A stretch of 9,088 nucleotides of DNA from NCBI GenBank assembly GCA_964497435.1, contig CAZCCD010000004.1:14501-23588 (forward strand), read 5' to 3'. The stretch comes from Candidatus Woesearchaeota archaeon (lineage in GTDB: Archaea; Nanobdellota; Nanobdellia; Pacearchaeales; GW2011-AR1). Of this stretch, positions 134-8,240 are shown one piece after another (position 1 is the stretch's first letter; every line of letters starts with the position of its first letter). Below the pieces are notes generated by a model that was not told where the DNA came from, searched no databases, and was given only the letters and a program-made list of their open reading frames with translations. The position numbers and the translations under genes were made by a program.

Positions 134-3100
134 CTATTTTTTCTTCTCTTCCACTTTTAGTTGGAGCTTAAACCCAACCATCTTCTTGATTTCTTCAACA
201 CACTTTGGGTTTAAAAGAGTCATTAAACCAGCTGGCTCTTCGTTGCTTAATATGCTTTTAAGAATTCTCCTCATTATTTTCCCTGAACGAGTTTTAGGGA
301 GATCATTAACAAAATAAACTTTTTGAGGCCTTGATGTAGGGCCTAGAGTCTTGTCAACATGGTGTTTTATTTCTTGTTCTAACTTTTCTGAAGGTTTTCC
401 GCTTTTTAACACAACAAAGGCAATAGGAGTCTGGCCCTTTATTGGATCTGGAATAGGGACAACTGCAGATTCATTTACAAATTTACTACTATCTATTGAA
501 TTTTCAAGTTCTGCTGTTGATAATCTATGGCCTGCGACTTTCATTACATCATCTGTTCTTCCAGTTATTCTAAAATAACTTTCTTTCATTACTGCTCCAT
601 CACTAGTATCATATTTTCCTTTAAATGTTTTCCAGTATGTTTCTACATATTTTTCATGGTTGTTATAAACTCCATGCAGCATTCCTGGAGCGAAGGGCGA
701 GAGTTGAACTAAAAATCCTTGGGAAGATTTTTTTCCATTTTTATCTAGGATTGTATGTCTTGTTCCTGGGAAGGATTTTCCAGCAACTGTTGGAATAAAA
801 GGACCAATGCCAGGAAGAGTGTTTATAATAGTGCCTCCTGTTTCTGTCTGCCACCACGTGTCTAGTATAGGACATTTACTCTTTCCAATATTTTTGAAAT
901 ACCACATCCACGCTTTTTCATCTATTGGCTCTCCAACTGTCCCGAGAATTCTTAATGAATTTAATTTGTGTTTCTTTAGATATTTTTCACCCCATTTCAT
1001 GAACATTCTTATTGCTGTAGGTGCTGTATAAAAAACAGAAACTTTGTATTTATCTATGATTTGCCACCATCTTGAAGGATTTGGAAAATCAGGAGTTCCT
1101 TCGTAAATTAGAGTTGTTGCTCCATTTAACAATGGGCCGTAAAAAGCGTATGTATGCCCTGTAATCCAGCCAATGTCAGCTGTGCACCACATAATATCAG
1201 AGTCTTTAATATCGAAAACCCATTTTGCTGTTAGATAAGCTTGGACAGCATATCCTCCTGTATCATGGACAATTCCTTTTGGTTTGCCAGTTGTATTGTG
1301 TGTAATAATTCCATTGACAATATAATTATGATTTTTTTCGGCTGTTAAATCATAAACAAAATCATATTCGTTATCTATTTTTTCTATTTCTAAAATTTTT
1401 TCTAGAATAGCATTTTTAAACTCTAATAATTTTTGAATTTTTTTTCTAATTATCTTTAATTTTTCTAATTTTTCTTTATTAGTTTCTGTTTCAATTTTGT
1501 TATCTAAAAATTCTTTAATTATTTTTAACCCTTTTTTATCAGTTTGATTGCTATGAACAAATTTGGTGATTTTGCTAAAATCCCCTTTCCAATCTACTTT
1601 AATAGTTTTTGTAATTTCTTTTAGAAGAGAAAATAAAGGAAATCTATCTTTTGAAAATATTTTTTTTGAAGATAATTTCTCCACTAAACTATTAAGCTTC
1701 ATTTTTTTAGCTTGATCCGAAAATCCAATTTCTTTATGAAATCTATTTAAGGATTCTCTCTCGGAAATTATGACATCTAAATAAGGAGTTTCTTTTATAA
1801 CTCTATTTCTGATTTTTCTTTCTTTGTTTATTCCATGATATACTTTAGCGATTATACCAAATCTTCTCATTAATAATTGAGAAATTCTAATCAATTCTTC
1901 ACTTGTACTTGATAATTTAATAAAAGAGTGTCCAATTGTTCCTTCTGCATCGTATAATCCTCTTAAAAACCCAGCAATACATTCTTTCTCACTTTTTTGA
2001 ATAATTTTTGGAATGTCTCTCTTATTGCTTATAGTTGCAATTTCAGGAAAATTTTCTATTATATAATTTCTAAATAAAGAACTATTAACTAGTAATCTTA
2101 ATCTTTCACTCTTTTTTCTTATATTACTTTTTACATTTAATTCTTTCAAAATTAAATTTTTGTAAGATTCTAAATTAGATATGTCCTTATCTGTAAAGAT
2201 AATGCTTCTTTTATCTAAGTGTCCATCTCCAACAAAATATCCTAAGATTTGAGCAAATTCAGAAGTTAGAAAATTCGGAATTTCTGGAATATTTTCTGGT
2301 TTATAAGTTGTTTTATTTCCATATTCTTTTTTTTCTTTTAGTTTTGGAAGTGTTTGTTTTTCTCCTTTTATATTTATGCTAGATATAACAAATATTTTAT
2401 TATTATTTAATAAATTTTTAACTTCTTTTTCAATTAGATTTCCATATTCATCTAGACTAAATAATCTGTGATTTGGAGTAAAAATAGCCTCGAATGAGGG
2501 TGTTCTTATCTTATATAAAACAGAGTTATTGGGATATTTATGAAGGTTTGTGATGTTATCTTCCATTTGTACTAAAGGATTAGAATGCATATTGACTATT
2601 TTCGGCTTAATATTTTTCTCAACTATTTCTTTTATTTTTACAATTTCTCCGTTTACTAATTGTATTAAAGAATTTGGATGACAACAGCCACTAGTATAAA
2701 GAATAAACATTGGATCTTCAGAGTTTATTATTTCTGGCTTGCAATATGTAGAGCCTTTTTCTAAAAAAGAATTAAAGTTAGTAAATTTACCAGAATAATT
2801 TCTTTTTTTATTCAATCTTGAGACAACAATAACATGTTTTATAGTTGTGCCTTTTATTGCTTTTTTTGCCTTGCTTAATAAATTTTCTTTTTCCCCTCTT
2901 CTATAATATCCATCACAAGTTATAAGGACATTTGCCTTGCAATCTTCAATTCTAGCTTTTAACGCGTCTGTTGCGAATGCAGAGAAAACAACAGAATGAA
3001 TAGCTCCAAGTCTTGTGCATGCTAGCATTGCAACTAAAGCTTCTGGAACTAAAGGAAGATAAATAGAGACAGCTTCGCCTTTTTTTACTCCAAGATCTTT

Positions 3101-3478
3101 AAGAGAGTTTGCGAATTTATTTACTTTCTCATATAATTCTCCGTAAGTTAGAATTACTGGTTTTTCATTTATAGGTTCAGGAATCCAGATTAAAGCTGGT
3201 TTGTTTGGATTTTTTAAGTGCCTATCTAAAGCATTGACGCAGAAATTTAATTTTCCTCCTTTAAACCACTCGAAGTAGGGGAGTTTTTCAACGTAAGTGT
3301 TTTTTTCTTCCCACAATTTTTCCCAGACAATGCACTCTTTTGCCTGTTCATTCCAAAACTTTACAGGAGCTTTTTCAGCTTGAGAATAAACACTAGGATT
3401 GTTTATCCAAGCTATTTTTTTCATTTCATTGCTTGGCCAGAATTTATTGCCCTTTTTTACGACGTAAGACATTTTCAC
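134..3478 (-). CDS. acs: Acetyl-CoA synthetase (AMP-forming, ANL superfamily) interrupted by an in-frame intein; predicted spliced product about 650 aa
   Basis: The 1114-aa ORF has Acs-typical N-terminal (WFKGGKLNFCVNALDRHL), core (DTWWQTETGG) and C-terminal (LPKTRSGKIMRRILK, carrying the catalytic/acetylatable Lys) motifs. The A3 motif YTSG...TTGKPKG is split by 464 aa. The track start at 3478 is GTG and lies inside a GAGGTGA Shine-Dalgarno-like sequence. The ATG two codons downstream (start at 3472, MSYVV...) is therefore the more likely initiation codon. Confidence 0.9.
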   Translation of the reverse strand: MKMSYVVKKGNKFWPSNEMKKIAWINNPSVYSQAEKAPVKFWNEQAKECIVWEKLWEEKNTYVEKLPYFEWFKGGKLNFCVNALDRHLKNPNKPALIWIPEPINEKPVILTYGELYEKVNKFANSLKDLGVKKGEAVSIYLPLVPEALVAMLACTRLGAIHSVVFSAFATDALKARIEDCKANVLITCDGYYRRGEKENLLSKAKKAIKGTTIKHVIVVSRLNKKRNYSGKFTNFNSFLEKGSTYCKPEIINSEDPMFILYTSGCCHPNSLIQLVNGEIVKIKEIVEKNIKPKIVNMHSNPLVQMEDNITNLHKYPNNSVLYKIRTPSFEAIFTPNHRLFSLDEYGNLIEKEVKNLLNNNKIFVISSINIKGEKQTLPKLKEKKEYGNKTTYKPENIPEIPNFLTSEFAQILGYFVGDGHLDKRSIIFTDKDISNLESYKNLILKELNVKSNIRKKSERLRLLVNSSLFRNYIIENFPEIATISNKRDIPKIIQKSEKECIAGFLRGLYDAEGTIGHSFIKLSSTSEELIRISQLLMRRFGIIAKVYHGINKERKIRNRVIKETPYLDVIISERESLNRFHKEIGFSDQAKKMKLNSLVEKLSSKKIFSKDRFPLFSLLKEITKTIKVDWKGDFSKITKFVHSNQTDKKGLKIIKEFLDNKIETETNKEKLEKLKIIRKKIQKLLEFKNAILEKILEIEKIDNEYDFVYDLTAEKNHNYIVNGIITHNTTGKPKGIVHDTGGYAVQAYLTAKWVFDIKDSDIMWCTADIGWITGHTYAFYGPLLNGATTLIYEGTPDFPNPSRWWQIIDKYKVSVFYTAPTAIRMFMKWGEKYLKKHKLNSLRILGTVGEPIDEKAWMWYFKNIGKSKCPILDTWWQTETGGTIINTLPGIGPFIPTVAGKSFPGTRHTILDKNGKKSSQGFLVQLSPFAPGMLHGVYNNHEKYVETYWKTFKGKYDTSDGAVMKESYFRITGRTDDVMKVAGHRLSTAELENSIDSSKFVNESAVVPIPDPIKGQTPIAFVVLKSGKPSEKLEQEIKHHVDKTLGPTSRPQKVYFVNDLPKTRSGKIMRRILKSILSNEEPAGLMTLLNPKCVEEIKKMVGFKLQLKVEEKKK
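1295..2686 (-). mobile_element. Intein (464 aa) with a LAGLIDADG homing-endonuclease domain, inserted in the Acs phosphate-binding loop
   Basis: The junctions read YTSG|CCHPNS... and ...NGIITHN|TTGKPKG, giving Cys1, a penultimate His, a terminal Asn and Thr+1. Block B TxxH is present (TPNH). The two LAGLIDADG motifs are LGYFVGDGHL and IAGFLRGLYDAEGTI. Block F/G is DFVYDLTAEKNHNYIVNGIITHN. Removing it restores the canonical YTSGTTGKPKG. Hand counts of sample 60-nt lines give about 15% GC inside the intein (lines 1441, 2101) versus about 42% in the exteins (lines 1141, 3001). Confidence 0.88.
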
Positions 3479-3484
3479 CTCTAT

Positions 3485-3507
3485 ATTGAAATCTTATAGA
3501 TTTCAAT
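3485..3507. promoter_or_regulatory. Perfect 10-bp inverted repeat (ATTGAAATCT-3 nt-AGATTTCAAT) between the acs TATA box and start codon
   Basis: The palindrome arms are at 3485-3494 and 3498-3507. A TATA-like ATTTAAATA (minus strand, 3533-3541) sits about 25 nt upstream of the repeat. The repeat therefore lies at or just after the predicted TSS and just before the GAGGTGA SD. It could be an operator or a 5'-UTR hairpin. Confidence 0.35.
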
Positions 3508-3553
3508 CTTTTAATGCTTTAAGAATTTTTTGTATTTAAATCTGTCGAAAGGA

Positions 3554-3832
3554 TTATTTGGATTTTTTCTTTTTTATAAGATAAATAATTGACGAGAATA
3601 TTATATAATAAATGATGAAATTTATAATGAAGGATAAAGTTACTACGAAATAAGCTGGCGAATTATAGGAAGAGGTAATAAAAAAGAATGGTGCGGATAG
3701 AAGAAAAAAAACAAAAACAATCATTGAATTGCCATTAAAAAGATTTATAGAGATTATAATTAATAATACAAAATACACTATCGTAAAAATCTTCTTTGGT
3801 TTATCAAATCTTATAAACTCTTTAAATGTCAT
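3554..3832 (-). CDS. Small hydrophobic membrane protein (92 aa, about 3 predicted TM segments, lysine-rich C-terminus)
   Basis: The ORF has long hydrophobic runs (IFTIVYFVLLIIISINLF, MIVFVFFLLSAPFFFI, YFVVTLSFIINFIIYYIIFSSIIYLI). Its ATG overlaps the upstream CYTH stop in an ATGA (3829-3832), which implies translational coupling. No family was recognised. Confidence 0.5.
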   Translation of the reverse strand: MTFKEFIRFDKPKKIFTIVYFVLLIIISINLFNGNSMIVFVFFLLSAPFFFITSSYNSPAYFVVTLSFIINFIIYYIIFSSIIYLIKKKKSK

Positions 3833-7049: not shown

Positions 7050-7138
7050 AAAAAGTAAAACTGTTATTTATGAGTTAGTCTAAATACATATCCTTACAAA
7101 GTATTTAAATATTTGTTTTTAAAGAAAATGTAATGGTA

Positions 7139-7263
7139 TTACGCCCCGTCCTACTTGCGACCTTGCTCGTTATTGATTCAGATTGTCTTCGCAAAATCGC
7201 TCGGATTCGAAATTAAACTTTCTGGAGTTACGCGAACCTCTATGCCATTTCCAATGGCATTCA
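7139..7263 (-). other. Conserved structured 3' module A, directly downstream of tRNA-Glu and ending in a repeat of the tRNA 3' acceptor strand
   Basis: Read on the minus strand, the module starts with an 8-bp hairpin ATGCCATT-GGA-AATGGCAT. Next comes the invariant 13-mer GGTTCGCGTAACT (7226-7238), then TTTCGAATCCGA. A stem UUGCGA (7189-7194) / UCGCAA (7155-7160) follows. The module ends in GGACGGGGCGTAA (7139-7151), which matches the tRNA 3' end GGACAGGGCGTGA (7261-7273) at 11 of 13 positions. A GTAATACCATTAC hairpin and a T-run follow. The module is homologous to 8120-8240. Confidence 0.45.
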
Positions 7264-7519
7264 CGCCCTGTCCGAGATTCGAACTCGGGTCACGGCCGTT
7301 CTCTAAGCGCGGTGAAAACCGCGATTTGAAGTTCTTTTGGAACTTCTTTACCTCTCAAAAATTCTCTGAGGCTTAAATAAAAAGCCTGTCCTAAGAGGAC
7401 GCGAGTCATTGTCTCGACGACTATACTCATGCAATTTAATTAAGTTGAGAGGGCCGCATTCCTAGCCTCCCATATAGATTTTACTCCAAAATAGGATTTG
7501 GCCTCTGAACTAACAGGGC
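7264..7519 (-). tRNA. tRNA-Glu (anticodon CUC) with two introns: 36 nt in the D-loop (21/22) and 147 nt at the canonical 37/38 site
   Basis: The exons are 7519-7498, 7461-7446 and 7298-7264. They assemble to a 73-nt cloverleaf: GCCCTGT TA GTTC AGAGGCCAA GAAT G CGGCC CTCTCAC GGCCG TGAC CCGAG TTCGAAT CTCGG ACAGGGC G. Acceptor, anticodon and T stems all pair perfectly. Both introns sit in BHB motifs. Intron 1 has central helix GGCC/GGCU with bulges AA|A and AG|G. Intron 2 has central helix CUCU/AGAG with bulges CA|A and AA|C. No CCA is encoded. Confidence 0.78.
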
Positions 7520-8064: not shown

Positions 8065-8119
8065 TTCTTTGACAGAATTTCTTTTAACTTATATACTTTC
8101 TAATTCTTCTTAAAAGATG

Positions 8120-8240
8120 ATAGCCCTGCCAACTCATGACCTCACTTGTAATTCATAAAGTTAGTCTCATGAAATCATTCGGAATTCGAAAATGAAATAT
8201 TCCTAAGTTACGCGAACCCATTATGGTTTTCAACCATAAA
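8120..8240 (-). other. Conserved structured 3' module B, directly downstream of tRNA-Gln and ending in a repeat of the tRNA 3' acceptor strand
   Basis: Read on the minus strand, the module starts with the hairpin ATGGTT-GAAA-AACCAT. Next comes the invariant GGTTCGCGTAACT (8206-8218), then TTTCGAATTCCGA. A stem UCAUGA (8167-8172) / UCAUGA (8134-8139) follows. The module ends in TGGCAGGGCTAT (8120-8131), which is identical at 12 of 12 positions to the tRNA 3' end at 8240-8251. A T4 run follows. Confidence 0.45.

Follow-up and report, generated by a model that had tools for sequence, protein, structure and literature searches.

Two structured modules bracketed by repeats of the tRNA end in a Woesearchaeota archaeon as putative miniature insertion elements

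A 9,088-nt stretch of DNA from a Candidatus Woesearchaeota archaeon (assembly GCA_964497435.1, contig CAZCCD010000004.1, positions 14,501 to 23,588; hereafter the window) raises a simple question: why are its tRNA-Glu and tRNA-Gln genes each followed by a segment of about 109 nt that closes with a second copy of that tRNA's own 3' end? Sequence comparison establishes an insertion bracketed by a duplication of the tRNA end, differences in site occupancy among relatives, and two paralogous structured copies in this genome, which we call modules A and B. We hold, with moderate confidence, that these are copies of a miniature, gene-less and non-autonomous structured insertion element (~109 bp) residing at tRNA 3' ends. 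An earlier note on this DNA, made from its letters alone, had listed a small mobile or integrative element with a 12-13-bp duplication among its hypotheses, and it is this hypothesis that best fits the comparative data, namely empty sites, unrelated inserts within the same bracket, tandem arrays and one pair of filled and empty sites. If the modules are discrete mobile units, they would be the smallest tRNA-targeting insertion elements that we know of, and they would point to an enzyme of DPANN archaea that acts in trans and recognises the ends of tRNA genes. The mobile elements of these archaea are poorly known.

Two homologous modules between repeats of the tRNA end

All features of the modules lie on the minus strand. 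Behind tRNA-Glu, copy 1 of the repeat (7273-7261, GGACAGGGCGTGA) comprises the final two T-stem nucleotides, the acceptor 3' strand ACAGGGC, the discriminator G and TGA, and copy 2 (7151-7139, GGACGGGGCGTAA) precedes a small hairpin (GTAAT/ATTAC) and a T4 run at 7128. The copies are identical at 11 of 13 positions and lie 122 nt apart, exactly as had been reported from the first reading of the letters. The same reading had held that the change within the acceptor strand still permits pairing, and this is correct: the A-to-G change in copy 2 preserves a U-G pair, and the spliced tRNA is accepted by ARAGORN with either 3' strand. In an extended alignment, copy 2 matches the 3' part of the tRNA at 18 of 23 positions. 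Behind tRNA-Gln the repeat is perfect and 12 nt long (TGGCAGGGCTAT), its copies (8251-8240 and 8131-8120) being 120 nt apart and the second being followed by a T4 run at 8115. Read from the sequences, the Glu and Gln 12-mers have five of 12 positions in common, and each is specific to its own host tRNA.

Module A (7152-7260, 109 nt) and module B (8132-8239, 108 nt) are homologous and collinear throughout, with 72 of 112 aligned positions identical (64%; global z = 8.6, local z = 17.7), which bears out the homology proposed in the earlier note. Each begins with the P1 hairpin (7260-7242 in A, 8 bp with a GGA loop; 8239-8221 in B, 8 bp with a GAA loop), continues with the 13-mer GGTTCGCGTAACT (7238-7226 and 8218-8206) and a second shared block (TTTCGAATCCGA at 7212-7201; TTTCGAATTCCGA at 8191-8179), and ends with the P3 stem (7200-7191 paired with 7166-7157; 8178-8169 paired with 8145-8136). 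The 13-mer occurs in the window solely at these two places; 0.04 matches are expected by chance, and two copies were seen in none of 200 shuffles. The 16 nt upstream of copy 2 resemble a T-arm, and in this part A and B, compared by eye, agree at 11 of 16 positions, more than either does with the T-arm of its own host. The proposal that an internal T-loop-like block is a decayed older tRNA copy did not reach significance (p about 0.12-0.14).

Folding of A and B together with RNAalifold gave 17 base pairs, of which eight are changed on both sides between the two sequences. These pairs form two helices, P1 directly 3' of the tRNA end and a 10-bp P3 shortly before copy 2, so that the compensatory changes noticed earlier in two helices hold, the distal one being extended to 10 bp (GCGAUUUUGC/GCAAGGUCGC in A versus AUGAUUUCAU/GUGAGGUCAU in B). 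The 6-bp distal register first described (UUGCGA/UCGCAA versus UCAUGA/UCAUGA) is a slipped alternative of P3, and both registers covary because each strand contains a 4-5-nt internal repeat. All cells (100%) are paired, compared with 27-47% when the partners are slid, and the observed values were reached in 2 of 500 shuffles. In both modules P3 has two G-U pairs, and because of these conserved pairs the sense strand is the stabler one: both modules fold better on the tRNA-sense strand, at -27.1 versus -21.7 kcal/mol on the antisense strand for module A, and at -13.5 versus -7.4 kcal/mol for its P3 alone. Furthermore, the window contains three perfect hairpins of at least 8 bp, two of which are P1 of A and P1 of B. 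The stability of the whole-module folds is unremarkable (z = -1.6 for A and -1.2 for B). Taken as predicted structures, the conserved helices P1 and P3, the G-U pairs and the sense-strand folding favour a selected single-stranded structure of the sense strand.

It had also been argued that module A is probably co-transcribed with its tRNA, given that a T-run appears only after the second repeat. The T-run after copy 2 is indeed there, but a T4 run of equal length lies inside each module (7196 in A, 8192 in B), which weakens the argument. Read-through from the tRNA into the module is plausible.

The search for further copies had little yield. Rfam returned no match to the modules either at the gathering score or at E values up to 10, in keeping with the earlier note, which could not match module A to a tRNA half, a C/D or H/ACA RNA or a known ribozyme core. 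The pattern GGTTCGCGTAACT N{8,25} TTCGAAT had 15 matches in collections of genome and metagenome contigs, all of them due to chance (GC-rich or bacterial coding sequence); a collection of viral contigs contained neither the module pattern nor the 3' ends of tRNA-Gln and tRNA-Glu, and a blastn comparison of module A with phage and plasmid records gave no match. A covariance model built from A and B (R1), which scores them at 147 and 141.5 bits, respectively, found in ~190 kb of related loci solely A, B and their duplicates on Logan contigs, the next best match being the insert of one relative (L017) at E = 2. A route through spurious open reading frames (ORFs) of the modules to the protein database failed too, as their reading frames are not conserved. 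The Logan contigs, the only other assemblies of the source species that exact protein matching brought up (SRR12113420 and SRR12113430, at most 2.5 kb long; L005, L028 and L029), break exactly at the T-arms of tRNA-Glu and tRNA-Gln; the breaks may come from k-mers that tRNAs have in common, or from a branch of the assembly graph between alleles that have and lack the module.

The same sites in related genomes

Syntenic loci were obtained via a conserved 83-aa gene located between the two tRNAs. Its product, which has an EF-Tu domain 2, and the saccharopine dehydrogenase of the window have homologues that bear Nanoarchaeota or Woesearchaeota names (DPANN). The source species had no representative but itself: the nearest other 83-aa protein has 89% identity, and the nearest other saccharopine dehydrogenase 70% (P0122); the locus of a further saccharopine dehydrogenase, 66% identical (P0123), is not syntenic. 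The module is absent from all relatives examined, whose orthologous tRNAs stand without it. The word 'conserved', which had been applied to it at first, is thus apt for A and B within this genome and fails beyond it.

Empty sites at the orthologous tRNA loci, for which the earlier note had suggested looking, do exist: the tRNA-Glu site is empty in one relative (L019), where a T-run and the next promoter come directly after the tRNA, and the tRNA-Gln site is empty in three (L020, L030 and L038). Where the sites of relatives are occupied, the sequences differ, and each is closed by a repeat of the tRNA end from its own genome. Four of these inserts are short and non-coding: 84 nt in L017, 90 nt in L020-L022, 117 nt in L044/L045 (with four perfect hairpins and a fold z of -4.6) and 160 nt behind tRNA-Gln in L039-L043. 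Larger inserts were found by extending the repeat search beyond 500 nt. They include a cassette of 1193 nt with a gene for a Fic protein in L038, and two tandem cassettes in L030, of 543 nt (a 132-aa ORF) and 1648 nt (a helix-turn-helix (HTH) protein and a 162-aa ORF), whose left ends are alike. Some of the inserts at the tRNA 3' site, up to 1.6 kb long, have genes on the opposite strand. Between inserts of different genomes there is no detectable similarity, and homology is confined to A and B within one genome. The population variants (L039-L043; L020 versus L022) were too alike for a selection test.

Across eight inserts, the minimal repeat is always made up of the same 12 nt, that is, three T-stem bases, seven acceptor bases, the discriminator and a T, and longer repeats occur too (18-25, 22, about 25 and 33 nt). 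Moreover, the relation of filled to empty sites can be read directly in one pair: the flank of the empty tRNA-Glu in L019 reappears in L038, beginning 4 nt past copy 2 (z = 17.4), and the sequence following copy 1 bears no such resemblance (z = 0.3). L017 and L038 likewise have a common downstream flank behind differing inserts (z = 9.6). Judged from these comparisons of sequence, the 3' ends of tRNA-Glu and tRNA-Gln are indicated to be a recurrent insertion hotspot with lineage-specific content, not the seat of a vertically conserved RNA. That the 12-nt bracket recurs around non-coding inserts as well as single-gene cassettes (Fic, HTH) suggests a hotspot of cassette accretion, which could account for part of the genome plasticity of these reduced genomes.

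Several further observations were made at these loci. L031, a population variant of L030 from the same groundwater site, has a different insert with an N-gap directly after tRNA-Glu (3541-3660), and the comparison of the two suggests ongoing turnover at this site. In L023 (5630-5850), a 151-nt insert lies behind a tRNA with a CAT anticodon, its bracket being a perfect 33-nt repeat that consists of the tRNA end and 25 nt of trailer. In L030 (3336-3400), the 5' end of tRNA-Glu is doubled, GCCCCGATAGTTCA occurring twice with starts 52 nt apart and the native promoter lying before the first copy; in this case the insertion between the repeats lies on the 5' side of tRNA-Glu. Finally, upstream of the 83-aa gene in L019 (1-9700), the position occupied elsewhere by tRNA-Gln, there is a region of ~9 kb with two phage-type integrase genes and with terminase-like HTH, TATA-binding-protein (TBP)-like and MazE-like genes. 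It is probably an integrated element; neither tRNA-Gln nor a bracketing tRNA repeat was found within the fetched range.

A proposed miniature insertion element and its alternatives

How might such a pattern arise? We propose that the element inserts in a single orientation directly behind a tRNA gene, and that insertion duplicates, or recombines within, the last ~12 bp of that gene (the T-stem end, the acceptor 3' strand, the discriminator and the T). Copy 1 would leave the tRNA intact, and copy 2 would be a by-product standing before the original downstream flank. Because no recombinase is encoded by any of the inserts, the enzyme would have to act in trans, with the conserved T-arm and acceptor end of the tRNA gene as its probable recognition site; candidate routes are site-specific recombination in a short core, a 12-bp staggered cut and an RNA-primed reaction. 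P1 and P3 may serve as end-recognition or processing structures of the element. The module would probably be transcribed by read-through from the tRNA promoter, and a tRNase Z cut at the discriminator would free a normal tRNA, so that the host could tolerate the insertion. A and B would be part of a wider set of insertions in Nanoarchaeota-type DPANN, ranging from 84-nt non-coding inserts to one- or two-gene cassettes of 0.5-1.6 kb. A ~109-bp unit that moves between tRNA ends and copies its bracket from each new target would be expected to leave what is found in A and B, that is, collinear copies of near-equal length, compensated helices, a host match confined to the 12-mer and a shared T-arm-like stretch of 16 nt. 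An attP core carried by the element would be less easy to reconcile with this pattern.

There are, however, a number of observations that weigh against this proposal. Only two copies of the module family came to light in the searches described above, both in this genome, and no recombinase or transposase was detected by Pfam in the window or in the related cassettes. Terminal inverted repeats are lacking, as the earlier note had stated and as reading of the module ends confirms. The repeat lengths vary (12, 13, 18-25, 22 and 33 nt), which is a poor fit to a fixed-stagger transposase. The flank following copy 2 in the window does not significantly match the flank of the empty site in L019 (z = 1.3), and no empty-site allele of the source species itself was seen. 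In addition, the gene cassettes have no end hairpins like those of the modules, and given these differing ends the modules may not be simple cargo-less versions of the cassettes. Lastly, the conserved RNA-type structure could equally belong to an RNA that is useful to the host.

Partial tRNA copies that bracket inserts, and tandem accretion at tRNA sites, are established in bacterial and archaeal islands (PMC9897764; bioRxiv 10.1101/2020.12.28.424599). Like tRNA-targeting integrative elements (tyrosine-recombinase islands, proviruses and tycheposons), the modules sit at the 3' part of a tRNA, leave it intact and have a partial copy at the far end; empty sites in relatives and tandem arrays separated by partial tRNA copies are further points of likeness. 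Unlike these elements, a module measures 109 bp and contains neither a gene nor an integrase, so it is not autonomous; its identity block is 12-13 bp, whereas roughly 40 bp is typical of attachment (att) sites; and one module family is found with two unrelated 12-mers, which looks like target duplication and not like a carried attP core.

It would be tempting to regard the modules as decayed remnants of larger elements (a virus, plasmid or island) that were inserted by an integrase and are no longer mobile, with copy 2 as a leftover attR and the module as the residue of the element's arms once its interior had been deleted. We consider this fairly unlikely. Partial tRNA repeats are the standard signature of integration (PMC9897764), relatives have tandem arrays and larger inserts with genes at the same tRNA, integrase genes are present near the orthologous locus in L019, and copy 2 of A extends to the degenerate 23-nt fragment of the tRNA 3' part, all of which such remnants would explain. 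Yet A and B are collinear and 109 and 108 nt long at different tRNAs, whereas two independent deletions would differ in their end points; their helices are held by eight double changes, which is not neutral decay; and the host-specific part is just 12 nt, the adjoining T-arm-like part being common to both modules.

Smaller or non-autonomous elements offer further comparisons for a miniature insertion element. Cis-mobilizable elements (CIMEs) are kilobase-sized derivatives of integrative and conjugative elements, with att-type flanking repeats and no recombination genes of their own, and are presumed to be mobilised in trans. The modules resemble CIMEs and satellite elements in their att-type repeats, in their lack of recombination genes and in the mobilisation in trans that is presumed for them, and differ from CIMEs in being ~109 bp long, in having conserved helices of single-strand type and in that no helper element was identified. 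Miniature inverted-repeat transposable elements (MITEs) carry terminal inverted repeats and make a duplication whose length is fixed; palindrome-associated transposable elements (PATEs) of the IS200/IS605 type have subterminal hairpins, and neither terminal inverted repeats nor target duplication. With these classes of element (about 100-200 bp, non-coding and multicopy), the modules share their size, their lack of genes and their occurrence in copies. Unlike MITEs, they have no inverted repeats, and across the inserts at these sites the tRNA-end repeat is 12-33 nt long; as in PATEs, hairpins are present, yet there is a 12-13-nt duplication too. Casposons, which have terminal inverted repeats as well as genes for Cas1 and a polymerase and produce 14-15-bp duplications, are comparable in that Cas1-type integration would likewise involve a tRNA 3' end and the duplication of a longish end segment, and in that the arrays are formally repeat-spacer-like. 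The modules differ from them by the lack of inverted repeats and by a 12-13-nt repeat, and no Cas1 was detected in the window by Pfam.

The structure of the modules admits an explanation of another kind. Each module might be a host-useful, co-transcribed trailer RNA, whose acceptor mimic pairs with the 5' strand of the tRNA, with a leader or with some other target, and whose repeat is maintained by selection. Such an RNA would account for the conserved sense-strand structure with its G-U pairs, and for the match between the 3' end of each module and its own host tRNA; there is no strong terminator between tRNA and module, and pairing is preserved by both of the acceptor-strand differences seen in copy 2, which are A-to-G changes (in the window and L020). 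We nevertheless think this improbable. The orthologous tRNAs of all relatives examined function without the module, which is absent there; it is therefore no conserved device for tRNA maturation, and a general role in maturation is unlikely. Furthermore, unrelated sequences and coding cassettes occupy the same position with the same repeat, so that the repeat is explained by insertion; the T4 run within each module could stop transcription; and the fold z-scores are unremarkable.

A more speculative idea would combine mobility with the transcript. The modules could represent an undescribed class of recombinase-less mini-elements of DPANN archaea with tRNA 3' ends as their homing sites, in which the acceptor-strand 3' tail of the structured transcript guides or primes the next insertion (RNA-guided or target-primed). 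This would account for why each 12-mer is that of its host, why there is a single orientation, why the sense strand is structured and why inverted repeats are lacking, and arrays of the form tRNA end, insert, tRNA end (e.g. in L030) would then be a repeat-spacer-like accretion system. We regard it as a long shot.

Least probable by far is the proposal, also made in the earlier note, that the module is an archaeal intron within the acceptor 3' strand whose excision regenerates the same tRNA: the host does tolerate multiple, non-canonical and very long tRNA introns, and excising the 122 or 120 nt between the repeats would yield a valid tRNA, but copy 1 alone already completes the tRNA, which makes splicing unnecessary, and inserts at the same site reach 1.6 kb with genes on the opposite strand. 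The modules do recall the transposed non-canonical bulge-helix-bulge (BHB) introns of Thermoproteales, being homologous insertions in two tRNA genes of an archaeon rich in non-canonical introns; unlike them, they have no BHB motif and lie behind the mature 3' end, at a site that gene-carrying inserts use as well. No credible BHB was found at any offset that would regenerate the tRNA, the candidates being no more than G-U-rich self-matches that score 4/1/2 in A (with two G-U pairs in the central helix) and 4/2/1 in B (with three G-U pairs). As a positive control, the same procedure recovered the canonical tRNA-Gln intron at 37/38 with 4/3/2 (four of four central pairs, flanks of 3 and 2).

The host tRNA genes and neighbouring features

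The window has a G+C content of ~30%. Both host tRNA genes are on its minus strand and have TATA-like boxes ~25-30 nt upstream. The tRNA-Glu(CUC) gene (7519-7264) contains a D-loop intron of 36 nt (7497-7462) and an anticodon-loop intron of 147 nt (7444-7298), which were parsed by hand against the intron-less tRNA-Glu of L023; once freed of introns, the sequence is identified as tRNA-Glu(ctc) by ARAGORN. The tRNA-Gln(CUG) gene (8366-8241) has a D-loop intron of ~39 nt and an anticodon-loop intron of 17-20 nt, and the Rfam tRNA model matches it at 42.3 bits with insertions of 39 nt and 20 nt. A canonical intron with a BHB motif is present in this gene. In the raw window, ARAGORN finds no tRNA and Rfam gives no match at the gathering score, because each of the two genes has two introns. 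Partial tRNA copies and multi-intron tRNAs such as these defeat standard tRNA finders and fragment assemblies.

The 147-nt intron of tRNA-Glu contains a hairpin (CGCGG-UUUUCA-CCGCG, 7322-7307) whose loop is like the anticodon loop of Glu(UUC), one base too short. This is probably a coincidence, since the hairpin at that place in relatives has unrelated loops. In several relatives, the long tRNA-Glu introns have a common block, GGUGAUC..UCUUGAUGAAAG..GGUCUAUG.AUCUCAAUGC (L017 1095-1150; L019 10425-10475; L020 10342-10395; L038 1665-1715; L044 3535-3590), possibly a small RNA carried by the intron. This block is missing from the introns of the window and L039, which are of another type.

Two observations concern the far end of the window. 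The acetyl-CoA synthetase gene (134-3478, minus strand; 1114 aa) contains an intein with a LAGLIDADG homing-endonuclease domain, from which the orthologues in L017 (657 aa) and L019 (638 aa) are free. Between this gene and the next ORF lies the third perfect hairpin of the window, with a stem of 10 bp (ATTGAAATCT/AGATTTCAAT, 3485-3507).

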